From Balamuthia mandrillaris (taxonomy: Eukaryota), in the NCBI GenBank assembly GCA_031835245.2, contig JAVKOQ020000079.1, positions 176,321 to 196,320 on the forward strand: DNA of 20,000 nucleotides. Direction: 5' to 3'. Position numbers and translations under genes: made by a program. Shown here in pieces: positions 1,293 through 20,000 of the stretch. Each line of letters opens with the position of its first letter. Position 1 is the stretch's first letter. The notes under the pieces are model-generated. The model saw only the letters and a list, made by a program, of their open reading frames with translations. It did no database searches and was not told the DNA's origin.

Positions 1293-2611
1293 TCAACTTT
1301 TTTTATTTCGTTTTCTTTTTGTGCCAACAGTTGCTGTTGTGGTCTCACGCTTGTCACTTCTCTCCTCTTCCTCAGCGTTATCACGGTCTGCTTTCATCTG
1401 CTGCTTTTCAGAAACATGATGACAACACCTATCACCGCTGTGTCCTGGTAAGGGATAGCTCATCTCATCGAAACTCCAAATGTTAATAGTGCGGTCCACC
1501 GATCCCGATATGATTTTGCTGTCATCATATTGCAGAGCCCATACGCCAGAAGTATGTTGCCGCAGGACGTTGCATGTCCACTTGCTCCCGTTGCGTACAC
1601 CATCCTCATCGCCTACTTCCTCCCATACTGCAAAGAGGTATTGAGTACGCAAAGAAATAACAAGATAGAAATAACAGAGAGGAGAGAGGAGAGGAGAATG
1701 CAGACCTCGTATGGTTTTGTCTGTGGAGCCACCGCCAGAAACGATTTTTCTGGGCCAGGTGGTGCTGTTCACTCTGAGGCAGAGAACTTCTCCTTCATGG
1801 CCGTCTATGTTGGCCACTTCTGCTCTTGAAGTACTTCCTTGCCGTAGATCCCATACCTATTTTTGTAAGATTGAACAGTTGGTTGGTTTGGGAAGAACTG
1901 AACATCAAACACAGCAACAAGAAAAGAAAAATACTTTGATGGTTTGGTCAGCTGAACCACTAAAGAGAGTATAGGGCATGCCAGTATGACGACGAACAGA
2001 AGAATTGCTCTCCGGAAACACCGCCAAAGAGTTTACTGCTCCTTTATGGCCTGTCAACGTCAGCACACATTCGGTGGTGCGCAGATCCCATAACTTGATC
2101 GTTCGGTCTGTATTGTATTGTCGAGATAATGTTAACAGTAGAAGAGAAACGTTGAGCGAGAGCTAGTGCTTTACCCTCATAACCACTTCCACTAACTAAA
2201 AGACGTTGGTCATCTTCAATGCTGAGACACCTGCATTGTACGTCATGAGAAATGCTAATTTTCACCAAAATGTGGCGGTTGGTATGAGAATGAGTAAGAA
2301 GTACCAGATATCACTACAATGTCCTAAGAGTGTATGTACACAAAATTGTTTCTGTAGATCCCATATCTTTATGGTGTGGTCCTCTGAGCCGCTCGCCAGC
2401 ATGCGGTCCTGGAACTATTAGACGACGAAGTAGAAACGAAGATCAGTATCTGGAACTGGATTAAGACACAGTGATGGTGAATGATGCCTGCAAGCTCCAG
2501 ACTCCCTTAACGTGGCCCGTAAATGTATGTATACAGCGGCCATTTTGAAGGTCCCATACTTTGACAGTTGCATCCTCAGAGCCACTACTTTCGGAGTCAG
2601 ACTTTCGCCTA

Positions 2612-2654
<43 letters not shown>

Positions 2655-4032
2655 ACAAGTGCAATATTACCTTAACAAGCGGTCTTTATGAAACTGGAGG
2701 CACCAAACGCCAGAGTTATGACCTCGCATCGTCATACGACATTCTCTGGTGTGCAAGTTCCATACTTTAATAGTTTCATCTTCTGACCCAGACACTGAAG
2801 AAAAGAAAATTGAGTCAGTATCGCAGTGAGAAGAGAAAGAGGGAGAAGAGGAGCACAATGCTTCACCTATCTTCTCTTCATCGAATTGAAGACAATAAAG
2901 TTGGCTGTCGTGCCCACGCAGGGTGTAGACTTGATATTTGGACTCCCGCCAGTTTTTGTCCAGTCGAAGCTTGTTTAAATATATGCCTTTCCAATCCTTT
3001 CTTCTTCTTTTCTGTGGTGCTGTTTTCTGAAAGATTGTAGATGATGATGATGATGACGGCGCAACATCATCCCTCTGCTGTTTAACGGTCTCCTCTGTGT
3101 TGCATTGATGGTCGCGTGCTGCTCCAGGAGATAAGACGTTGCCGCTTTCGTTGACGTTTGGTTGCTTTACCTTTCCCTTCATATCCACCAATTCTATATC
3201 TTGGCCTACAACTATCATTTCGTGGCGTTGTGTATCTTCGTGGCTGGATTGGCGACCCCCATTGTTGTCGTTGCAACGCAGCAGGTAGGAGGGGGGTTTT
3301 TGCGACTCCTGGCAGGCTGAGCACCATGTCATTATCGGAGTGACATCACGCTCCAAGTTAGGTTGCATACGCCACCGCCTGCGTCCAAACGTCACCATTA
3401 GTCCCATGAGAGAAGAGAAAAGAGGGCAGAGGAAAAAAAAAGAAGAGAAAGGGGACAAAAAGAGACTCAAACCGTTGACAAAGCAAGCGCCAGATAAGAT
3501 TATCCTGAGATAGGCGAGAAAACTGTCGGTTAAGCAGCGCAACATTGCTGAGCTCCCTCTCATCCAGATAGCTTAGAATGTAGAGCACGCACTCATCCGG
3601 CAAAAGGGCGAAATAGCCAGCTCCCTCCTTGTCGGAGAGGTTGTGCTTTTCCTTTTGTATTGTTTTTTTTTTTTGTTTTTGGGTGGCGGTGGTGGCGGGT
3701 AGGGTTTGTTTATTTGGAAAAAAAAAAGCAACAAGTGAGAAAATAATACTAATAATAGGGTGAGGAGAGGAGAGGTCACCAAATACCAAAACATCGTAGA
3801 GCGCTAACGTTTGTCGGATCTGTGCGTTGAGGTCCCTGGAGTGGGGGAGGAGCTGTTGAGCTAGGAGCTCTTCAAAGGGCCAACGGGTGGCCCCGTTCTG
3901 CAGGTTGTGGTGCACGAGCTGGACGCGATCCTCCATTTCCCCGGCTAGACATAGAAGCTCCTGCAACTGCTTGATGGTCTCACCCGTTTGTTGGCTGCGG
4001 GAGCTGTCTTGCTCCGCCTCTTCTCCTTCCAT
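1293..4032 (-). CDS. F-box/WD40-repeat protein (Cdc4/FBXW7/beta-TrCP-like SCF substrate receptor), multi-exon
   Basis: F-box motif FALLPDECVLYILSYLDERELSNVALLNRQFSRLSQDNLIWRLLC, linker DWKGIYLNKLRLDKNWR, and several WD40 repeats across ORF fragments (LRGHDSQLYCLQFDEEKI..VSGSEDETIKVWNL, SGSEDATVKVWDL..GHVKGVWSLQ, GHEGEVLCL, HTSGVWALQYDD..SGSVDRTINIW) separated by pyrimidine-rich introns. Start taken at ATG 4032 (MEGEE); not every exon boundary was resolved. Confidence 0.9.
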
Positions 4033-4295
4033 CTCTTCTCCTCTCACTTCTTCGCTCGCCAGTTGTCGTTTACAAATGGGGGAGGGGAGGGCAATTTGTT
4101 GGTGAATTGCTGCAGGAGAGGAGGAGGACCCCCGTTTGTCGACAAATAAGGACCAGGAAATTATTTGTCTCGTCGATTTTATTGGGAATTATTATTGAAG
4201 GCTCTCCTGCAGATTTGGTGCACCAATTGACCCCACCACGTTCATTCATTTCTTCCCTAGTTTAGGCCGCCAGAAGAAAGAACAACAAGCAAAGG

Positions 4296-4601
4296 ATGGG
4301 AGACGTAAGTATTACCGCCTCACTCACTTTCTTTTTGTTTCTTTTCTTTTCTCCACCTAACCAAACGAAGAGTCTCGTAAGGGCTTTGTATGACTATGAA
4401 GCGATGGATCCTGATGAGTTGACGCTTCGTGAGAACGACATCATATGTGTGCTGTCCAAAGACCCATCAGGTTGGTGGAAGGGGCAGTGCAACGGCCGAA
4501 TTGGCATGTTTCCTTCTAACTATACCGAACCTTGTGACTCGGCAACAGGCGCGATGGCAAACCCACACCTGACAAACCCTTCACGGGGAGGTACTGTCTG
4601 A
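4296..4601 (+). CDS. Small SH3-domain-only protein (~79 aa)
   Basis: Canonical SH3 motifs ALYDYEA..DELTL..ND.I.VL..DPSGWWKG..NGRIGMFPSNY. Intron 4305-4370 (GTAAGT...CTAAC...AAG, 66 nt) follows Met-Gly-Asp. Confidence 0.85.
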   Translation: MGDVSITASLTFFLFLFFSPPNQTKSLVRALYDYEAMDPDELTLRENDIICVLSKDPSGWWKGQCNGRIGMFPSNYTEPCDSATGAMANPHLTNPSRGGTV

Positions 4602-6669: not shown

Positions 6670-6992
6670 ATTGATCATTCTTCTGAATACCCCTCCAAGG
6701 GGAAGATGGTGATTTTACTAAAAAAAAAAAAAAAAAAAAAAACACCCATGACGACATGATTTTAATTTATACTGCTTATCGCATCTTATTACAATCATTA
6801 ACGGACTGAAAAGAAATGGCCAGAGTAAAACAGCAGCAATGAAAGCCACATTTAGCAGGGATGTTGGTGTCGCCAAGAACCGCTGCTGCTTCATATCGTT
6901 TTAATTTTTCGTTGTCCTTATTTGTTTCTCTCTGGTTTTTTTTTTTTTTTGGCTGCGACAAAGAGCGAAACAACCACAAGAACGAGGCAAGC

Positions 6993-7844
6993 ATGCAGGG
7001 ACCCCCCACTACCGGAGAGCTGCAAGGAAGCAACGACGTTGCTAAGCTGGAAGATTTGTGCTCCAGACCCTACAAGGACCAGGCCATCTGGTTCTTGAAC
7101 GGTTTCTGGGTGGACTTTGCCAAGGACGAGGCCGACAAGATCTGGGGTTACGTCAACCTTTTAGCTGAGTTGGATGAGAAGAAGAAGGCGCACGGCAACG
7201 CTGTGGATGAGTTCCAAGCCCACCGCTTCTTGGAGAAAATCGGAGAGACCCTCACGGTCCAGTCCATGAGGGACAAGCTCCGCTCCACCGGTGCGTTCGG
7301 AGAGCAGAAGTTCAGAACAGTCCCTCTGGCCCACTTCCTCCTCTTCAAGTACAACATCAACTACCGCGACCTCGTCAACGCTCCTCAGGGCAGCCTCAGC
7401 CCCACGGAGCTCGCCAAGGCCCAAAAGATGGTGGAAGACGCCCAAGCCGCTTGCGAAGCCGCTCAGGCTCGCGAGGCTGAGCTCAGAGCCGCCGAAAGGG
7501 AGCTCAAGGCCCAGGAGGACGCCTATAACCGCAAGACTGAGGAACTGACGCGAGCCAGCGAGACTGGAGGAGCCGTTTCCAAGAACAAGGCCAAGGCTGA
7601 GCTCGCTCAACACCTTGCCGAGGATCCTTTGCCGCTTCGTCGTGCCAAGATCACCGCCGAAGCTGCCGTGAGGAAGGCTGAGGCCGCCGTCGCGGAGGCC
7701 CAAAAAAGTTTGGCGGAGGCGGAGGAGTACCTCCAAAAGGCCAAGAGCATGGGCGCACCTGAGGGACAGATCTGGTGGATGGAAAAGGAGTTGCAGGAAG
7801 CCAGGAAGTATTTGCCCAAGTCCAAGGGCGGCGTCGCCAAGTAA
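6993..7844 (+). CDS. 34-kDa calcium-regulated actin-bundling protein family member (Dictyostelium ABP34/AbpB-like), 283 aa, intronless
   Basis: Y.DQAIWFLNGFW near the N-terminus, an Ala/Glu/Lys coiled coil with ITAEAAVRKA, and C-terminal GQIWWMEKELQEARKYLPK recall ABP34 motifs (QQAVHFLNAYW; SAEAAVR; GAIWWMNRDLEE), matched from memory. Strong C/G-ending codon bias. Start placed at ATG 6993 because the upstream in-frame stretch is poly-T UTR-like sequence. Confidence 0.75.
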   Translation: MQGPPTTGELQGSNDVAKLEDLCSRPYKDQAIWFLNGFWVDFAKDEADKIWGYVNLLAELDEKKKAHGNAVDEFQAHRFLEKIGETLTVQSMRDKLRSTGAFGEQKFRTVPLAHFLLFKYNINYRDLVNAPQGSLSPTELAKAQKMVEDAQAACEAAQAREAELRAAERELKAQEDAYNRKTEELTRASETGGAVSKNKAKAELAQHLAEDPLPLRRAKITAEAAVRKAEAAVAEAQKSLAEAEEYLQKAKSMGAPEGQIWWMEKELQEARKYLPKSKGGVAK

Positions 7845-8282
7845 AAAGGCTCACCCGGTTCTTCTCACATGGTAATCTTCATATAAACCTTTTGAATGTG
7901 TTACTACTACCGGTTCGTGTTGTGTATTGTTGTCTTCTATCTTTCCTGGTCCTTTTTTTTTTCCCCCCCACAGGAAATGGGGAGGGACGAAAACAGGACA
8001 GGGCATGCAAAAAAACAAAGCGCCTTGTACGGTCCACCACGACCAGTCTAGCTAGCCTCTCCTCCATCGGCTGCCTTGCGGTATGAGGACAAAAAATACC
8101 AGCAGGCGAAGAGAAAAGAGGCGGAGAGGGCATGGAACCCAAGCTGCACACATATCCCACAATCACACCACCACTTGTGCTCAAGAAAAAAAAAATAGAA
8201 CAAAAAAACAAAAACAAAAACAAGGAACCCCTTCCCCTGCGAATAGCAAACACCTCCCTTCTCTCTGAGTGGAAACAACAAT

Positions 8283-8625
8283 ATGGAACACGAGAGCGCA
8301 CAAGATGTGAAGGAAGCCACTAAAGACTTCATCTTCCAGCAAACCATGTTCAGGGTGAAGGACCCTGTGAAGTCGGTAGATTTCTACAGCAAAGTGCTTG
8401 GCATGACCCTGTTGAAGCGCTTCGACTTTGAGTCCATGAAGTTCTCGTTGTACTTCATGGGCTACGTGGATGAGTCCCAGATCCCCACCGATGAGAAAGA
8501 GAGGACCAGGTGGCTCTTCCAACAGCCAGCTACCCTCGAACTCACCCACAACTGGGGCACTGAGAGTGACCCAACTTTTGAGGGCTACCACAATGGCAAC
8601 TCCAACCCCAGAGGTTTCGGTACGA

Positions 8626-8660
<35 letters not shown>

Positions 8661-8924
8661 CTCTCTTGCTCTCTTGCTCTCTTGCTCTCTTGCTCTCTTG
8701 CTCTCTTGCTCTCTTGCTCTCATTCTAACAGCCATTTGGCTGATATAGGCCACATTGGTATTGCTGTTCCGGACGTGGATAAGGCCTGTGAGCGATTCGA
8801 GCGACTGGGCGTCCAGTTTCAGAAGAAGCCTAACGATGGTTCGATGAAAGGCTTGGCCTTCATTAAGGACCCCGACGGCTACTGGATTGAGATCCTCAAC
8901 GGGGGCAACATGGCCTCCCTCTAA
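8283..8924 (+). CDS. GLO1: Lactoylglutathione lyase (glyoxalase I), ~170 aa, 2 exons
   Basis: Signature motifs [67 protein letters not shown]. Removing intron 8620-8748 (GTAC...ATAG, 129 nt, with (CT)n and (CTCTCTTG)n repeats) restores RGFGHIG. Confidence 0.96.
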
Positions 8925-9195: not shown

Positions 9196-10529
9196 ATGCG
9201 GAGAGAGTCACATCCTCCCAGCCCTACTGCCGCTACTACTGCCCTTGGGGTCATCACTGACACGGTTGACAGCAGCCAACACGCCAACAACTGGTGGAAG
9301 AACAACAGTTGCAAGAGCAGTGGTGGCGGCGGCGGGAAGAGACTGGAGAGCAGCAGAAGCTATCATCACGCTATGTTGAGACACGTGGCCTTTCGTCGGT
9401 GGACGCGGTGGCAAGGCCTGTTGGGTTTAGTTGCAATATGCTGCATCTTCTTGGGCAGCTTTGTATTTTATTTTCCTCTTACGGCGAGGCGAGAAGGTCA
9501 GCAACTCTTACTGTCCTTTCATAATGGTTGTATCTAAGCAAGTTTGCTTAACGTGCATTTTCATAGGCGAAGAGCTTCCTCAGCAGTGGGTTGACTCCAC
9601 GCCCTACCGCTGCCCCGACGGTCCTTACAGCTCCGCGCGCAAGTCGCTGCATGACTACATCCTGCAAAAAGTATTGGAGCCGTATCGCCAAGACTTGCCC
9701 TCAAGAGAGGGTTGGATCCTGATGGGAGGACCCGGGTCTGGTAAGACCTCCATCATCAACTCCATCTTTTCGCAACAGTCGGAGACGCCTATTCGTATCG
9801 ACCCCGATGAAATGCTTCCCATGCTGCCTGAATACCGCAAGTCGATGCGGTTTTGGAGCGAGACCAAGCAGACCTGGGTTTTTGCCAAAGATGCTGCCTT
9901 TGCTTGTCATGAAGAAGCCCAACATATCGCCCTACTTCTTGCAGGTTGATGTCTAACCCTAGAGGGTTCTTTTTCTTTGGGTTCAACATGTAGTTAATAG
10001 TTTGTTTTCGTTTTTTGCAGAGAAAGTGCTTCAGCTGCATATACCGTTTATATATGATGGAACAGGACGTAACATAACCACTTACGAAAAGTTGTTGGGT
10101 CTTCTTCAGCAAAATGGTTATCACTCAAACCTTATCCTGACATATTGTCCTTTGGATATTGCTTTGGAGCGGGTGAAGCTTCGAGGCCAGAACACAGGAC
10201 GCTTTGTCCCAGAGGAGGTTGTTACAAACATCTATTCAGTTGTTTACTCCAACTTTTTATCTTTGTACCCATTAGTTGACCAAGGTTCCTTTCCTCTCCC
10301 TCTCCCTCTCCCTACTCTTCCCTCTTTCTTTCCTTTTTTTTTAAAAGCAAAACTTACCAATGGTAATATAGCCTATGTATTTGATGCAAGTGGACAACGT
10401 CCACAGGCTGCTTGGTCGTGGAACAAGAGACAAGGGCACGCACATCGCTGTCGAGCCACGAAAGAGAGCTTAGTGCGGCATGTGCTCTCACTCCCATGCG
10501 ACATGCATGATGATCACCCGTTCCCTTGA
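9196..10529 (+). CDS. Zeta-toxin-family (PezT-like) P-loop kinase with an N-terminal single transmembrane anchor; 4 exons
   Basis: Phase-1 introns 9497-9566, 9945-10020 and 10285-10371 join the ORFs. TM segment LLGLVAICCIFLGSFVFYFPL follows a basic stretch. Walker A LMGGPGSGKT, then RIDPDEM, FIYDGTG and ERVKLRGQNTGRFVPEEVV, typical of zeta-toxin/AAA_33-type kinases. The start codon is uncertain. Confidence 0.75.
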
Positions 10530-10689: not shown

Positions 10690-11892
10690 CTATTCTTCCG
10701 TTTTTTTAGTGCAGCGGTAAGGATAGTAGTTGGTAGCTGGTCCTAAATGGTCCAGCCACTCCAATGTTGCCATTTCTGTGCCTGCTCTTGCTTCTGCTTC
10801 TGCTTCTGCTTCGCTGGTGTTTTCGTTGTGAGCATTGCTTCCTGTACCACCACAACACTCTGCCGTTGACAAACAACACAATAAAGCCCTGTCTTTATGA
10901 ACAAAGTCATCGTCAGGCTGTTCAGCGCCGCTGCGAAAGACCGAACAGTTATGAAAGCAGCCAAATCGATAACAGCACCACACACGCTCATAGAATCCAA
11001 GCTGGAGTAGCCAACGAGGTCGGCTGTTTGGCTGATGGCTAGAATTGCCATCCTGCCCCAAACACACATAGTCGGCCACCGTGAAACCACAACGGGTGCA
11101 GGTCAGGGCTGGCGTCTTCTTCCTTATCGGTGGCAACTGATCCCAATAGCTGTCTATCTCCTCCTCTTTCGCCTCTCCGTCTTCTTTCGGTTGTTGAGAA
11201 GGAGAGTGGAGCTTTTCCAGCGCTGTGTAAAGCGTCGTTGGTGCAGAAGGCGGCGAGTAGATCATTAACTCCAAGTGCGTAGCTTCGATTTCCAGCTGCT
11301 TTCGTTTCTCAGGGTCACGCTCATAGGCCTTACAACAGCAGGCCGGTGCTCCCACTGATCCACACCCCAAAGGGCAAAATAACTGTTTGCTGTTGGCATC
11401 CCATACTAGGTAGCACCCGCAGCCGGTAGGTTCTGGTACTGGTGGCTCTTGCTCAGGTTCTCCTTCCTCGTCAGGAAAGCTCGTAATAGGCTCCCAATGG
11501 CGCACAGTATGAGGCGGGCGATGGCCTTGGCAGCGAAAGCCTCCAACACACCACTTACACCGCCCACAGGTGAAGGTCGGCAGCGGTGGGTTCTCTAATA
11601 GATAATGCAGCAGCTTTTTCCAGTTGGGTTGTTGTTTTATACCTGTTGCTTTCTCCAGAGTAGATAAAAGACCCACACCAGAAGATAGCAGTTTTGTCTT
11701 TGCTGCTTGCTCTGGAAGTGTTAGTGTGCTGGTTTTCTTTCCTCCAAAGGCGAAACAAGTCAGCTCAACAGCAACAAGGTCGCATGCATTGAGCACTGGA
11801 CAAGTTAGTACATTGAGAAGAAGCTCCGGGGGTAACCAGAACAAAAGGGAAGTGGTGGTCTCATTCAAGACGTTTCTTGTTATTTCTTCCAT
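10690..11892 (-). CDS. F-box-like protein with Cys/His-rich C-terminal region, ~400 aa, apparently intronless
   Basis: N-terminal LLFWLPPELLLNVLTCPVLNACDLVAVELTC matches an F-box start (LP.E.L..I/V). Many CxxC/CxC clusters follow. First ATG is at 11892 (MEEITRN); the ORF-track start at 11907 is a TTG. Confidence 0.65.
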   Translation of the reverse strand: MEEITRNVLNETTTSLLFWLPPELLLNVLTCPVLNACDLVAVELTCFAFGGKKTSTLTLPEQAAKTKLLSSGVGLLSTLEKATGIKQQPNWKKLLHYLLENPPLPTFTCGRCKWCVGGFRCQGHRPPHTVRHWEPITSFPDEEGEPEQEPPVPEPTGCGCYLVWDANSKQLFCPLGCGSVGAPACCCKAYERDPEKRKQLEIEATHLELMIYSPPSAPTTLYTALEKLHSPSQQPKEDGEAKEEEIDSYWDQLPPIRKKTPALTCTRCGFTVADYVCLGQDGNSSHQPNSRPRWLLQLGFYERVWCCYRFGCFHNCSVFRSGAEQPDDDFVHKDRALLCCLSTAECCGGTGSNAHNENTSEAEAEAEARAGTEMATLEWLDHLGPATNYYPYRCTKKTEE

Positions 11893-12173
11893 TTGACAAC
11901 TTTTCAATGGGACATCGAAAAATTACCCAAAATTTTTTTTTAAACCGAACTTATCAAGTACCCTACATATTACTCTTTCCTTATTTGATTTGGGTCAACC
12001 AAACACAGCACTGTTTGTGCACACGAGCTGCACGTTTCCTGATGAGCCCTAGTGATAGAAGTCTGGCCATTCACCTCAGCAGCAGCTTGGGTAACATCAT
12101 TAGCTTGCTTTGTTTTATACTTTTTCATTTCAGTATTCTTCTTTTCTTGCTGGCTTCTCAGCAGTAGCTCTGA

Positions 12174-12189
12174 AGGGTTAGGGTTAGGG
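12174..12189 (+). repeat. Short interstitial telomere-like tract AGGG(TTAGGG)2
   Basis: Sequence AGGGTTAGGGTTAGGG read directly at 12174-12189. Confidence 0.8.
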
Positions 12190-12308
12190 GCGGGTACTCA
12201 GAACCTACAGCATTCAACTCCCCATGGTCCATTCTATAAAACTCTAAGTCTATAAGTCCAACGGATAAAGTGGGGCAAAGTAGCAATTTTTTCAATTTTC
12301 TCATAGGA

Positions 12309-12327: not shown

Positions 12328-13821
12328 CTAACTGGATATAATCATAATATCATCATCATCATCATCATCATCATTCTCCTTTGTTTCTTCCTCTTCATCC
12401 AAGATGGATATGACTGTAGTGGTAGTAGTAGAAGTAGGAGATGATGGGAGGGAAGCATGGTTGTCATCCGGTGTGTCAAAGTCCTCATCATGGGCCACCA
12501 AGTATTTGTCTTTTAAAGCATCGAGATTGTTGAAGAATTCTGTGAGGAGATTGCGCCATTTGTCATAGCAATCATTGTTGGTTCGGCGTTGGGTAGGCAA
12601 GTGTTTGGCAATCTCCAACCAAGACCATCCATCACGCAAGCGCCAAGTGACAAGTCTACGGATTTCTGGTGTCTGCCAAGCAATCCGTTGTCGATGACCA
12701 TTCTTCTGATATTTGAGTCGATTGGATAACATTTGTTGTCGCTGCTGAAGTGCTCTGCGAACTCGTTGTCGTGGTGGTGTTTTTTCTTTTGAGTTATGAT
12801 TCCTTTCATCATCATCATCGTTATCATCGTTTTTTTTCAGAACATCATCATTAGGAAAAGTAGGTAAGAATGGCTGCTCTTGATGACGAGAGGTGAGGAA
12901 TGCTTTGTGAATGGGTGATCCGTTGACCAACTTGGGAAGTACAGGAGCTACAAACTCATCCACCAGCTCATTCAAGCCACTGAAAAAACCTTGTAGAATG
13001 CCAGAGATATGTTGACGGCAAAGCTGACGATGAATATTGGGCCAACGAAGAGGAGATTTGTTTTTGGCCGCATAAGTTGCTGCAGCTTCAGCTAACACAT
13101 CCTTGTCAAACTCATCTTTGTCTACCCAAGCAGTACAACATTCAAGCCACAAGGAGCGATAAAATCGTATTTGTTGATCTTTGGTTGGTAAATCTGTTCG
13201 TTTCATGAAACTAAAGAAGCAGTGTAAAAGAAAGAAAAAGAAAGAAAAAGAGAAAAAGAGAAAAAGAAAGAATGAGAAAGAAAGAAAGAAAGAAAAAGAG
13301 ACAAAAAACAAAGTGTGAATAAATGATGCAATGTCAAAAGAAGAACAAATAGACCAACACCAATCCATCAGAACAATTATTGTTTAGACCATGAATGTTG
13401 TTGCTGCTACAATAAACCTCTGCGTTCGAGCTGAGCGCTGAGTCTAAAGGTGCATTTTTGAATGCAAACAAGCAAGCAAGCAAGCAAACAAACAAGCCAT
13501 GACTGAATAGATTGATAGATAGTGGTAGATACCATCCAAACAAAACAAACCAGCAAACAAACAAACCAACAAACAAACAACAACAAGCAAAGGGCAACAA
13601 AAAAAAAACAAACAAACAAACAAACAAACAAACAAACCGTTGGCGAACAGCATGGATAAAACTCTGATAGTTGGTATCTGCAGACCACTTGGATTGTTGC
13701 AAAGCCTCTGGGGATAGATTGTGAAATGCTTCTTTGGTAACTAGCTCTGGAGCAATCACTGCAAGGGAGTGAGGATAAAAAAAACCACAAAGAGAAAAAG
13801 TAAGCACAGGTGGTTTATAGA

Positions 13822-13862
<41 letters not shown>

Positions 13863-14686
13863 AAGAAAAAACAAAAGAAAAACAAAAAATCAGATGAATA
13901 ACAAACCACAATGTCGAGGCCCAGGAGAATGATGATCAGCAGCAGCAGCAGAAGAAGAAGAAGAAGAAGAAGAAGAAGAAGAAGAAGAAGGATGAAGGGT
14001 GGTAACATTGCTAACCAAGCGATTGGCCACAATAGCACGTTTTAATGTATCCTTGACGTAGACTTGCTGAGATCTACCACGAGGTACCCAACCTGCGATA
14101 AGGGCAGTGGTATCCAGTACATTGTTCTGACTATGCCCTTCCTGCAGTCCCTCCAAGATCAAGGCAGTGCAAAGGAAGCCAGCACGTAAGGAGTGAAAGG
14201 AGAATAACCCTTCAGGATAACCAGCCCGAACAGCGCGGTCTTGCAGCTTGGCATTCAAAGTATCGCGTGACCATCCCCATAATGATGTTTGTTTTTGTTT
14301 GTCTGTCAAGCACCAGTTGTGAAACTCTCGCAAATCCAAACCATGCTTGCACAGCAGATGCTTGTTTAGCCAGTAAATAAAATCTCCAAGACAAACTCCA
14401 GCGGTTGATGTTGTTGATGCAGCAGCGGTCGTGATGGTAGAGGTGGTAGTAGTGGTGCTAAGTGGCAATGAGGATAACGGGGATGGTGATGATGAAGATA
14501 TTCCTCCTGGTGGTGGTGGTGGTGGTGGTGGTGGTGGTGTTAAATAACCTTCAAAAGTAACGACATGATTCCAATGATTTGGTATTCCTTTGGTGACTTG
14601 TTGGCGCAAAGAAAGGAAATAAAGAGGAGGAGAAAAGGCATCCTCTTGGTGGTGACAGCTGATGTTGCTGCTGCTGCTGCTGCGGC

Positions 14687-14732
<46 letters not shown>

Positions 14733-15076
14733 ATTGTTGTTGTTGGAAAAGGAGGATGAAAGTTTAGGTCGAAATGCCACAATATCACCCAAACGAATGT
14801 TTGCTGCTGTAATGGCTCTGGCACCAGTACAAACACTGTGTAACCAACAACTGGCTTCACCAGCTTTGCTCACCAGTCCATCTGGAGTGGATGCGATGAT
14901 ATGCAAGACGTCATCCAGCAAACAAGCATCTTTGCACAATTGTTTGCTAGAACAGGAGGGTTTGGCTCTTTTGCAATGCCGAATGGCCTGTTTGACTTGA
15001 TCTTTGATGGCATCCATTTGGTTCTTTAGCAACAACAAGTAGGCATGATCTGTTGCCATCATTGCTGTCGTGCGTC

Positions 15077-15128
<52 letters not shown>

Positions 15129-16376
15129 AGTGACACCATCACCAAGAAGGGTTTTGGATAGAGGAGAAGCATTCCTGCTGGTTGTGGTGATAATAGAAGT
15201 AGGTGATGATGCTGGGGATGAAGAGATGGAAGAAACAGAGGAAGTGGAGGAGGAGGAGGAGGAGGAGGAGGAGGAGGAGGCAGCAAGGGTATCAAGCTGT
15301 TGTTGGATACTTTCATCATGCAAACGATAAAGACTGGCAATCATGACATCACGCACAGAGCTCAAGGCATACCCCACATCCAAAATCAACCATTGAACAA
15401 AGGCTCCTACATTATGGCGTTGGAGATTCAAAGGAAGAGCTGGCAAACATTGATGATGTGCACAATGCGCTTCCCAGATGGCCAAAGTCCAAGCATGTTT
15501 ACGTTGGGTCGAAGGGCTCCATCGACTCGTCACTGCTGTCAACTCTGTCCAGCGCTCTTCTGACAAATGGTTCATCAATGTGATAGCACGAGAAAGACGT
15601 CTGCCAGCACCATCACCACCGTTACGACTACTGCTGCCATGTGTGGTATCATCAGTATTATCATTTGCTGTTCTAGCTCCAATATGTTGGTTATCTCTTT
15701 TCTTCTTTTCTTGTTTTTCTTCTTTGTGTTTTTCTTTATCTTCTTCTTCTTCTTCTTCTTCTTCTTCTTCTTTGTCGTCGGTCAACAACAACAAATCTAT
15801 CAACGTTGGTGTGGCTGTTGTTTTACTTGTTGCATCTATATCTGTTTCTGCTCCTCCTCCTCCTCCGTCTAATGAGGATGATGATAATGACAATAAATTA
15901 CAATTGCTACCGCTATCCATAACATCTTCATTGTTCTCAAAGACAAAGGACTCTGAATTTGTTGAAGAAGAAGAAGAAGAAGAAAAAGAAGAAGAAGAAG
16001 AAGAAGCAAATGAAGAAGAAGAACCAGAAGAAGAAATCATCCTTTTCGGTTGTTGTTGTCGTGGTTGTGTTTGGGTTGTTGATGCTGTGGTGGTAATAGT
16101 GGCGGTGGTGGTGGCGGTGGTGGTGGTGGTGGTAGATGAAAAGGGTGATGCAGAAAAAGGAGGTGAACAGAGTTCTGCAGGGTTATCAACAGTAGCAATA
16201 ACTGGAGCAGAATCAAGGGTGGTAGCTGATGGTGGTGTTTTTAACCAATAATGATCCAAAAACTGCTTGCGAATGAAAGAGCGAGAGTCCAGAGCCTGAT
16301 AGGGAGGCAAGTGATGATAGAGAGATGTTGTGGATAAGGATGATGATGATGATGATGATGATATTGAGACAATCAT
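12328..16376 (-). CDS. Tyrosine recombinase (Cre/DIRS/Crypton-type) fused to a C-terminal Myb/SANT domain; spliced, >=1160 aa
   Basis: Exons 16376(or 16522)-13907, 13758-13638, 13443-13418 (26 nt) and 13193-12328 join via GT-AG introns 13759-13906 (phase 1), 13444-13637 (phase 2) and 13194-13417 (phase 1); total 3483 nt = 1161 codons. Core-binding-like region SPSTQRKH..WEAHC..LPALP..VGAFVQWL...GYALSSVR. Catalytic residues: TGAR (R 14817-14819), VTKG (K 14589-14591), FHSLRAG (14184-14195), AGW (W 14088-14090), QVY (Y 14058-14060). Myb: WQTPEIRRLV..W.W.EIAKHLP..RRTNNDCYDKWRNLL (~12544-12690). The frame is open upstream to an acceptor at 16523, so a possible first exon 16711-16678 would give 1220 aa. 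Confidence 0.85.
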
Positions 16377-16533
16377 TATTTCATCATCCTCTTCTTTTGC
16401 TGCTGTTGCTACTATTGTTTTTGCTACTGCTACTTCTTTGTTGTTGTTGTTGTTGTTGTTGTTATTGTTGTTGTTTATTGGTGGAGGTTGGTCAAAGGCA
16501 GCAGGAATAGATAGATTATCTTCTGTTTGTTAA

Positions 16534-16707: not shown

Positions 16708-17038
16708 TCATTTTCTTTCTTTCTCTTTTTTTTCCTTTTTCATTTTTATAATTGCCTTTTCATACTCAGTTGTCTTTTTTTGTTGCCTATCTATTATTTA
16801 CAACAACAATCACTACTATTACTCACTTACTCTCACTCAGCACTCTTAACCATTATTACCATCACCACCATTATTACTTTACTATTCAGCTATCTATCCA
16901 TTGTTTAACCAATATTATTACCATCAACCAACCAACCAACCAACCAACTCAAGCTATCACTCAACTAACCAACAAATATAAAAAGAGAAAGAGATCACCT
17001 GCCTGTGTTACGGCGTTGTGAACGAGTTGTGGCTCCTT

Positions 17039-17077
<39 letters not shown>

Positions 17078-17474
17078 TAGATGACGCAGCCACAGCAGCA
17101 GCAGCACTTTGCAAAGATGATTTGGCTGCAGCAGTAGCAATAGCCTTTTGGGCAGCAGCTGCAGCCTTGCGCGTAGATTTGTTGCTAAGGCTCTTGGATG
17201 CACTTGTGTTTTCCTCTCCTTTCTGTTTTTCTGCTTCTTTTTCTCCAGCTTTTGCTTCTTCTTCTTCTTCTACTTCTTCTTCTGCTTCCTCCTCTTCTTC
17301 TTTTTCTTCTTCTTCTTCCTTGTCTCTGCTAGCATCTTTGCTTCTCTGTTCCTCTTCTTTTTCTTTTTCTTTTTCTTTTTCTTTTTCTTTTTCTTCTTCT
17401 TCTTCTTCTTCTTCTGCTGTTGCTGCTGCTTGTTTAGCTGGGTCACTAGCAGTTTGCTTTGATACTAAAACAAT

Positions 17475-17511
<37 letters not shown>

Positions 17512-20000
17512 CATAAGACAACAACAACCACAATCAGTAAGTAATGGAATGAGAAATCACAAAGGCATAACACTGCAAACAAACACCAAAAAGATAGCGC
17601 TCCGATGGAGCGCTAAACAATCAACACCAAAAGACAATCAAAAAACAATGAATAGTAAAAACACAAAACTGGAGTTAAAAAGCTGCCGCTCCGACGGAGC
17701 GCTACTGCATAAGGATAGAATTGCAACCAAAACAGCCAAAAAGAAAAAAACACAAAGAGGAAAAGGACAAACAATCCAACAAACAAACTCCAACCAACAG
17801 ACAAAATGAAATATAATACATACATCCCAACACGTCGATCAGAATGGAATCATCACTCTCTTCATCCACTGCAACTGCTGATGGAGCTGTCTTGGGCATA
17901 TTTGTCTTGCTTTTGTTATTTCCACCACCACCACCACCACCACCACCACGTGGTGTATCTGTATGCATGCATGCATGCAAGTGAGATGCGATGCATTTGT
18001 GTGTTGTTATTGTGCAAAGAAAGGACGGATATAAGCAAGTAATAACAAAAAGAAAAAAAGAAAAAAAAAACGAGTAGGAGTAGTGGATGTTGTGGTTGTT
18101 GTAGTAACCACCAAACATGAGCACCTCTTACCTGTTGCAGGAGTGATATCAACACTCATGAGACTGGCAATCTCATCATCATCATCATCATCAGCATCAG
18201 CATCATCATTCTCTGAGGAGCTGCTATTGCTACTGCTGCTGCTGATACTAGGAGCAGTAGACTTGGTAGAAGCTGTAGGCTTCTTTTTCTTCTTGGATTT
18301 TTCCTCTTCCTGCTCTGACTCCTCTGACTTATCTGCCGCCTCTGACTCCTCCGACTTGGTGGTGGTCTTCTTTTTCTTCTTTTTCTGCTGTTGCTTTTGC
18401 TTCTGCTTCTGTTTCTGTTTCTGCTTCTGCTTCTGCTTTTGCTTCTGCTTTTGCTTCTTTTTCTTTTCTTTCAGCAGCACATCATCATCTGCTTTCCGTG
18501 GCTTCTTGCTTGTTGCAGGAGAAGAAGAGGCAGCAGAGGATGACATAGCTCTTGGGCGCTTTGTTGAGCTTGGTTTTTGCTGCTTTCTTTTTGCTGCTAT
18601 TGCTGCTGTTGCTGCTGCTGCTATGTCCATTTTGTCTACAAACTCACCAACTGATGTAGCATTTGCATCATCATCACCACCACCACCACCACCACCACCA
18701 CCCAGACGACTGCCATCATCAAGACTAAACTCTGCATCATTCAAACTACTACTCTGGTGGTCCACAGCAGCAAAAGAGCGAAGGTCAGGCCCAAAAAACT
18801 CTGTCAAGTCAATGCAGGGGCTGGCATCAACAGAGATATCTTGCTGCAGCTCACTGCTCTTCTGAGCCAGCTTGTCCATGGCTTTTTGGTGCCTAACCGA
18901 ATGGCGTTTGGCGCGATGCTTCTCCCTCTTCATTTCTGTAGTGCCGACTTTGGTAGAGGCTGTATGGATGGGCTGCCACGTTTTGTCTTCCAATTGATCC
19001 ACATATTGTAAATCCCTGGAGAGTAACAGAAAGAGAAAAAGAGAGAGAGAGAAAGAGAGAAAGAGAGAGAGAGAAATAAAGAGGAAAAGAGAAAAAGAAA
19101 AGTGAAAAAGTGGTGAGTTGTTGCTATGAAACAAACAAACAAACAAACAAACAAATAAAAAAACGACTTACCAATCAGCTGCGAGTGGTGATATAGCATC
19201 CAGCTCAGGCAAATCTTTGACATGCACAATAGCAGCTGCATCGGATAACTGGCCTGCTGGCATGTTAACTGTAGCAGAGCTGCTAGCTGTACTCTTGTTC
19301 TTGCTTTTGGTGCTGCTGCTGCTGCTTTTGCTTCGTCTTCGCTCAGGTTTTTTGGATTTTTCCACTGCGATGTGCGGCCACACTCGCTCCAGCTGAGAAC
19401 GAACCGGATGATGAATGCGTGTCTTCCAGACCTTTCTGTCCAAAGGATCCAACTCCAGCAGAGTATTCTGTTGTTGCGCTTCCTTCATCAAGCAGCGACG
19501 AACAGCGAGCACCAACCGCCTAACATCCTCCAAAGGTCCAGAAAGGTTGATGCTGGTAGAAATGCGCATGCCTTTCAAGGATTTCAGACTGGCAAAGTTC
19601 AACGCGTTCTCTGCCAAGGCTTCTTGCACCGTAAAGGGAGGACAATAATGGGTCAGCTTTATACGGTAGAGGAACAACTTTTCCTTGGCGGAATGCTGCT
19701 TATCTACTATCGCTTCCTTTTGGGCCGCTTGCTCTAATTGCTGGTGATCCAGTGGGGGATGTAAGAAGGCCTCTGGATCTTCCTCCATCATCGCTTCTTC
19801 TTCTTCTTCTTCTTCTTCTTCTTCTTGTTGCTCTTCGTCTTCATCTTCCTCTTCCTCTTCTTCTGACATCCTCTCTTGTTGTCCTTTCATTCGATGACGG
19901 CTTGTTGTTGCCTTTGGGGGAGTAGCTGACATAAGGGCATCTGCCAAAGACGACTCATGTAACCATTCTTGGCTCAACGGTGGCAAGCGAGTATTTTCCT
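16708..20000 (-). CDS. Large, highly charged low-complexity protein of unknown function, 5'-truncated by the window edge; >=5 exons
   Basis: Phase-consistent model: >20000-19172, 19015-18132, 17958-17824, 17464-16999 and (tentative) 16786-16708. Donors GTAAGT, GTAAGA, GTATGT, GTGATC. Contains poly-E, (KQ)n, poly-K NLS-like and poly-S tracts, plus one globular-looking segment (LFLYRIKLTHYCPPFTVQEAL...LERVWPHIAVEKS). Confidence 0.6.
17588..17704. repeat. Two imperfect 28-bp direct repeats, each containing a GC-rich palindrome
   Basis: AAAAAGATAGCGCTCCGATGGAGCGCTA (17588-17615) and AAAAAGCTGCCGCTCCGACGGAGCGCTA (17677-17704), 24/28 identical. Palindromes TAGCGCTCC-gat-GGAGCGCTA and CGCTCCG-a-CGGAGCG. 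Confidence 0.85.

Follow-up and report, generated by a model that had tools for sequence, protein, structure and literature searches.

What kind of genetic element does a gene belong to that encodes a tyrosine recombinase (YR) and a Myb DNA-binding domain in one chain? The question is raised by a locus in the protist Balamuthia mandrillaris, within a stretch of 20,000 nucleotides (nt) of contig JAVKOQ020000079.1 (assembly GCA_031835245.2, positions 176,321 to 196,320), here called the window; positions given without a locus name are those of the window. An initial annotation, made from the sequence alone, had assembled such a gene on the minus strand and had suggested either a new family of YR DNA transposons or a domesticated site-specific recombinase. 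We conclude, with good confidence, that the window gene is a copy of an undescribed family of YR-only DNA transposons that are predicted to target telomere repeats, and that it encodes the predicted transposase. A telomere tract at 12174-12189 beside the gene, and the telomere-bounded structure of its relatives, go beyond that annotation.

Results

A tyrosine recombinase and a Myb domain in one chain

The window gene encodes the full R-K-HxxR-H/W-Y catalytic set of tyrosine recombinases, as first annotated, with codons for R at 14819, K at 14591, H at 14195, R at 14186, W at 14090 and Y at 14060. These columns are close to invariant: among the non-gap rows of a 93-sequence alignment they hold R in 86/86, K in 88/88, H in 91/91, the second R in 91/91, W in 89/89 and Y in 87/89. 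For the fold, a predicted model of the paralogue P0012 (P numbers denote protein records) served as a stand-in for the window protein; built on a deep alignment, it reached a predicted local distance difference test (pLDDT) score of 87, compared with 42 from a 7-sequence alignment. Both the core-binding and the catalytic fold are present in this model. Residues 72-412 match Cre best (Z 15.5, root-mean-square deviation (rmsd) 3.8 Å, 288 residues aligned), and Foldseek also returns Cre (E 4e-6), so that the core-binding-like region and the phage-integrase fold expected at the outset are both recovered in the prediction. Past the Cre-like part come a helical domain (about residues 440-555) and one Myb, and the four low-complexity insertions of the window protein map to loops of the model. 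For the helical domain in the middle, an RNase III-like match (Z 7.2-7.6) was rejected as lying within the helical-bundle background. A BFVD search returned generic integrases only, and the ESM Atlas gave weak leads to ALOG/integrase and NDC10_II clusters, each with fewer than 145 shared features.

Splicing of four predicted exons (16529-13907, 13758-13638, 13443-13418 and 13193-12328) through GT-AG introns of 148, 194 and 224 nt gives 1211 codons with no internal stop, which agrees with the original joining of separate open reading frame (ORF) fragments into one predicted gene. The last exon would encode the helical middle domain (about 13209-12904), a single Myb (about 12693-12550) and an acidic tail before the stop. 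The number of introns is less secure. The three-intron frame is open, and database gene models of four copies of the same subfamily (P0001, P0040, P0184 and P0197) use the 26-nt microexon, but a two-intron alternative that joins 13638 to an acceptor at 13210 is open as well and aligns better with the other two Balamuthia subfamilies (146 vs 122 for P0012, 64 vs 57 for P0004); the microexon is a doubtful candidate in the window gene. No reads on 12450-13815 came from four RNA runs, in which the presence of the organism is unproven. On the 5´ side, position 16522 looks like a splice acceptor rather than a start codon. Upstream exons would enter the YR frame only via a GC-AG intron (17002-16523); a GT donor would instead make them a separate gene whose last exon is short. 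The fusion itself does not depend on the splice model, because relatives encode YR and Myb in a single uninterrupted ORF (607 amino acids in metagenome locus L001, 584 in L013).

The annotated C-terminal Myb domain falls below the Pfam cut-off in the window protein (E 6e-4) and passes it in paralogues. Its last helix resembles, across the family, the telobox motif LKDKWRT (PMC4924339), with D in 50/66, K/R in 60/68, W in 29/68 and R/K in 56/68 sequences of alignment A3. The recognition helix reads RTNxDCKDRWR in loci with TTAGGG repeats, vs a RxxxxVR[ED]RAR type in a host with TTGGGG repeats. Judged by this motif, the Myb domain likely reads the telomere repeat. One clade of the family ends in a chromodomain (P0111, P0117 and P0120; support 98), which suggests that the targeting module can be swapped.

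A family in Balamuthia and other hosts

When 1.84 billion representatives were searched with a profile, 560 matched at E 0.001 and 158 at 1e-30; the best 150 were examined. YR through Myb is found in one chain in 36/149 of these (P0002 set aside). A Pfam scan of 50 chosen members identified Myb in 31, a C-terminal chromodomain in 3 and Phage_integrase in 4, and none of the 50 matched DUF3435, DUF3504, GCR1_C, NDC10_II or reverse transcriptase (RT) at E 0.001. The YR-Myb fusion is a family rather than a one-off. Members with species names come from Monocercomonoides exilis and Blattamonas nauphoetae; viral contigs yielded no relative with either of two alignments. A short 5´ exon with a zinc-finger-like CxxC...CxxxC pattern recurs in different hosts (L001:60-150, L002:2732-2947 and the N-terminus of P0004), that of L002 having no Pfam match. 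A distant match, P0143 (2064 amino acids), combines within a single ORF a ubiquitin hydrolase domain, a region like the family and a second integrase domain.

All proteins closest to the window gene are from B. mandrillaris, P0001 being 95% identical to the window protein over 490 residues. Three Balamuthia subfamilies, on many contigs, form one clade (support 100) in a quick tree restricted to family members, from which P0032 and P0153 were excluded as having no anchor motif. Counted as protein records, one subfamily is a cluster of 17 members, at least 15 of them 88-100% identical and on contigs that differ in length, and another consists of P0002 and P0004. The 50-residue entries P0005-P0007 of cluster 2 are unrelated and were excluded. 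The window's own subfamily comprises three 5´ fragments and, on different contigs, 9 accessions for the 3´ part, and several of its copies show altered conserved residues. The family also accounts for a set of chimeric Balamuthia gene models: P0013 is joined to a Ras/RapGAP gene and P0020 to a DEAD helicase, P0003 and P0021 include the last exon of another subfamily, and P0033 includes the gene upstream of the window's YR.

Telomere repeats at the ends of complete elements

A metagenome scan gave 44 loci, or 26 groups at 95% identity. Perfect TTAGGG or TTGGGG tracts of at least 14 nt are present in 30/44 loci and 16/26 groups (11 with TTGGGG, 5 with TTAGGG), and 10 local shuffles each gave none. 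Loci with TTGGGG, which read with table 6, form one clade and are probably from one ciliate-like host. Five complete units from this host, of 2875-3194 nt, are bounded by tracts in direct orientation. A complete TTAGGG-bounded unit of 3340 nt, obtained from the overlap of L003 and L001, runs from a three-repeat tract to a long array, and the assembly of L002 is a circle or tandem unit of 3412 nt with one degenerate junction. Complete units span 2.9-3.4 kilobases (kb); each holds a single long coding ORF and lacks an RT, and tracts at element ends measure 15-47 nt. The earlier argument from the lack of an RT to a DNA element holds for these relatives. A 605-codon antisense frame in L031 was rejected as coding, being a low-complexity shadow.

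The tracts join the elements in a regular way. Among 16 distinct ends outside the window, AC stands at positions 13-14 from the last repeat unit in 13, and AACC a few bases on in 7; this junction signature is common to TTAGGG and TTGGGG hosts. Different subfamilies are stacked in tandem, and the short internal tracts that separate them keep to one junction phase. L013, L014 and L016 share an element at 99.9% identity; three different elements come after it, and four different AT-rich flanks precede it.

The AT-rich DNA before the outermost tract of the TTGGGG host varies, as does the phase at which the tract joins it (left flanks of L013, L014, L016, L024 and L028-L031). These flanks resemble sites of de novo telomere addition, and the arrays may lie inside somatic telomeres. 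In L007:1-140 the left-end block of tract and signature is present twice, 94 nt apart. At L010:584-607, about 620 nt before the gene, two TTCGGG units face a CCCTAA-type run, possibly a variant recombination site. Targeting of tRNA genes was rejected as an alternative, with no tRNA in the window and a single one across the 44 loci, a tRNA-Met gene 250 nt beyond the tract (L009:3599-3671, minus strand).

The inferred element end and its surroundings in the window

The only telomere hexamers in the window form the 16-nt TTAGGG tract, about 140 nt past the stop codon of the YR-Myb gene; a tract of this length arose in 1 of 300 shuffles of the window. Telomeres of Balamuthia are TTAGGG (10.1101/2025.02.25.640156). 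With the signature that follows the tract (Table 1), the junction is in the top 0.36% of the window's own 18-mers, as scored by a matrix trained without the window. Read in one frame, this element end gives VPAPNPNP. The same peptide lies past the Myb domain in P0013 (8/8) and in P0014 (one change), and a Ras match that is missing the first 74 profile positions begins directly after it in P0013. The signature end is the one that the gene faces in the window and in L009; in the other 15 ends, the gene points away from it.

The multicopy gene upstream (Table 1) may be a 5´ extension of the YR gene, a cargo gene or a neighbouring repeat. It extends beyond base 20000, corresponds to records P0187-P0193 (P0192 has 1144 amino acids) and, in one search, had no match outside Balamuthia. 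The names given to these records in the database (VASt, carbonic anhydrase, phosphodiesterase) lack Pfam support, and P0192 matches no RT family and no viral family in Pfam. The gene adjoins YR-Myb elements of two subfamilies (in the window and in P0033/P0189); accession order gave no demonstrable linkage to the subfamily of the window. A spliced gene at 9431-10529 on the plus strand, with a P-loop domain (Pfam Zeta_toxin, E 3e-9), is probably a kinase-like host gene. A repeat search of the window detected microsatellites only, and no terminal inverted repeats.

Table 1. Features of the window and their coordinates
Feature	Position	Strand	Remarks
Main YR exon	13907..16522	-	Low-complexity N-terminal part, core-binding domain (~15602-15330), catalytic domain (~14930-14027)
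Predicted intron, 148 nt, GT-AG	13759..13906	-	Unspliced frame stops at 13890; family profile continues across
121-nt exon	13638..13758	-	Conserved linker past the catalytic domain
Candidate 26-nt microexon, doubtful	13418..13443	-	Direct 13638 to 13210 join likewise in frame
Last exon (acceptor 13210 or 13193)	12328..13210	-	Helical middle domain, single Myb, acidic tail, stop
Inferred element end	12174..12207	+	TTAGGG tract, then AC at positions 13-14 from last repeat unit, then AACC
Upstream gene, exons 19998-19172, 19015-18132, 17958-17824, 17464-16999	16999..19998	-	770 open codons, multicopy, no Pfam family
Ordinary host gene, F-box/WD40	1296-4188	-	
Ordinary host gene, SH3	4266-4601	+	
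Ordinary host gene, F-actin bundling protein	6843-7844	+	
Ordinary host gene, glyoxalase I	8247-8924	+	
Ordinary host gene, F-box-like	10690-11922	-	Directly beyond the telomere tract

Discussion

The copies of the YR-Myb gene in Balamuthia, the complete relatives without an RT, and the lack of CryptonF, CryptonA and Starship markers among the 50 scanned members bear out the initial proposal of a new YR DNA-transposon family in a protist. By analogy with Cre/lox and with the model for Cryptons, the element end could be a degenerate, inverted telomere half-site, such that tract and end form an inverted pair. The recombinase would excise the element as a circle, and the circle junction would recombine with a telomere tract of the host, as YR chemistry and the Crypton model allow (PMC3212892). 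Integration would leave repeats on both sides, with each new copy supplying a tract that could be the target for the next. In this scheme the Myb domain would locate the telomere repeats, a role suggested by its motif.

Several observations weigh against this reading, either for the family or for the window copy. A tract of at least 14 nt is absent from 10/26 groups, most of them short contigs; L006 and L041 have more than 1.2 kb of upstream DNA without a tract, and the tract of L004 is 7.7 kb away from the gene. No empty site and no transposition were seen, and the different neighbours of one element bear on movement only indirectly. The resemblance of the Myb domain to telomere-binding proteins is partial: in the window subfamily, K of the telobox-like motif is replaced by Y (CYDKWRN in the window), c-Myb repeats outrank TRF1/TRF2 by sequence, and structural matches are tied, hTRF1 (Z 6.5, rmsd 1.8 Å over 51) being level with other Mybs. 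The covariation of recognition helix and host repeat is a single phylogenetic contrast, because 11/16 tract-positive groups form one TTGGGG clade. Copy numbers in Balamuthia are numbers of protein records, which haplotigs may inflate. Finally, the window, a gene-rich locus with a YR gene that has introns and long low-complexity insertions, contains one element end only; the 7.8 kb between the tract and base 20000 hold no other, and therefore the element is longer than 7.8 kb or its other end has been lost.

The features of the window copy lead to the main rival, in which this copy stems from the family but is now a host recombinase, domesticated or immobile, that acts for example on telomeres, and the tract is a relic. 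Introns, insertions in predicted loops and a changed Myb motif would all fit a host gene, as would the single end, the gene-rich neighbourhood and the 95% identical record P0001. Against this, the 3´ part of the subfamily has 9 accessions spread over different contigs, conserved residues are altered in several copies, and the window keeps the end signature. Domestication, the alternative left by the initial annotation, is weakened for the family and applies, if at all, to the window copy, for which we consider it improbable. It is still less likely that the tracts are passive subtelomeric repeats, gained through ectopic recombination or telomerase healing, and that the recombinase acts on a substrate elsewhere. 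L001 and L004 do end in long telomere arrays, and the outer flanks of the TTGGGG host resemble sites of telomere addition that vary in position. Against this reading stand the short internal tracts that part different subfamilies at a fixed phase, a signature common to hosts with different repeats, and the internal position of the window tract. We give least credence to the view that the Balamuthia gene serves as integrase in some larger element, whether an endogenous virus or a retroelement like TATE or DIRS, with other genes beyond base 20000: the missing second end, the multicopy upstream gene and the pairing of YR and telomere targeting in TATE and nimaviruses (PMC6681497, PMC10871703) would fit, but complete relatives have no room for an RT, P0192 matches neither RT nor viral families and no relative was found among viral contigs.

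We favour a YR-only DNA transposon family predicted to target telomere repeats. A wider reading, tentative and just short of one we would back, is that of an undescribed superfamily of minimal DNA transposons, of about 3 kb and one gene, with a captured telobox head whose helix is retuned to each host repeat. Its members, in oxymonads, amoebozoans, a ciliate-like host and further protists, would form tandem arrays within telomeres by Cre-like recombination, and their YR-Myb protein would be a small integrase of eukaryotic origin that acts on telomere repeats. The family itself would bring a further lineage to the small set of YR elements known in eukaryotes, and suggests that the choice of target is encoded by a swappable reader, Myb or, in some members, a chromodomain. 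Whether the Myb helix tracks the host repeat is a direct question that follows. A single-chain integrase of 550-600 amino acids for a repeated, gene-free site could be of interest to genome engineers.

Comparison with known systems

Telomere targeting is known for retroelements. In association with a YR it has been described for TATE (PMC6681497) and for giant nimaviruses (PMC10871703). We found no RT-free, one-gene, telomere-targeting DNA transposon in the literature searched. In the open literature, judged by titles and the openings of abstracts, the YR-Myb family is undescribed, with an entry possible in Repbase, which together with subscription journals lies outside that scope; the available part of PMC3537659 does not mention a YR-Myb fusion.

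TATE of Leishmania is similar in habit, being a YR element whose tandem clusters are inserted into telomere hexamers at a single position, which follows GGG (PMC6681497). However, TATE belongs with the VIPER-like retroelements and encodes RT and RNase H, whereas YR-Myb units of about 3 kb have one long ORF. No RT/RNase H ORF is found in the complete relatives, or in the window DNA to base 20000, which sets the family apart from DIRS, Ngaro, VIPER and TATE. Telomere-specific nimaviruses also show YR-associated insertion at the telomere motif, with repeats on both flanks and concatemers or episomes, but these viruses are about 280-400 kb, and their YR has an arm-binding domain and a C2H2 finger; the word "myb" is absent from the text of that paper (PMC10871703). 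Starships, likewise eukaryotic YR DNA elements, are fungal and have a DUF3435 captain at the 5´ end and large cargo (PMC9156397). The YR-Myb elements are small, with Myb fused to the recombinase, no DUF3435 match and units of 2.9-3.4 kb. Among single proteins, Cre is the best structural match of the N-terminal 410 residues of the P0012 model, at about 14% identity, and the Myb helix resembles the telobox motif of the TRF1/TRF2 type (PMC4924339), with c-Myb ranking above the TRFs by sequence and other Mybs level with them by structure.

The mode of action predicted here is like that of Cryptons, in which a YR is the sole enzyme, there is no RT, direct repeats lie at the ends and a circular intermediate has been proposed (PMC3212892, PMC8869645); in our data, YR is the sole enzyme, without RT, in the complete relatives and, for the window, within its 20 kb. 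Some CryptonV families target microsatellites (PMC8869645), and CryptonF proteins have a C-terminal DNA-binding domain, the markers being GCR1_C for CryptonF and DUF3504 for CryptonA (PMC3212892). Membership of CryptonF or CryptonA is not indicated, with GCR1_C and DUF3504 in 0/50 members. In contrast to Cryptons, the C-terminus of the YR-Myb family is Myb (chromodomain in 3/50) and not GCR1_C, there is no DUF3504 or NDC10_II match, and the ends are telomere tracts of 15-47 nt, within which the crossover point may lie anywhere, where Cryptons have 4-6-bp repeats. On the basis of a comparison of domains and ends, with a tree that covers family members alone, we suggest that the YR-Myb family works like a Crypton and is set apart by its domain content and perhaps by its telomeric ends.

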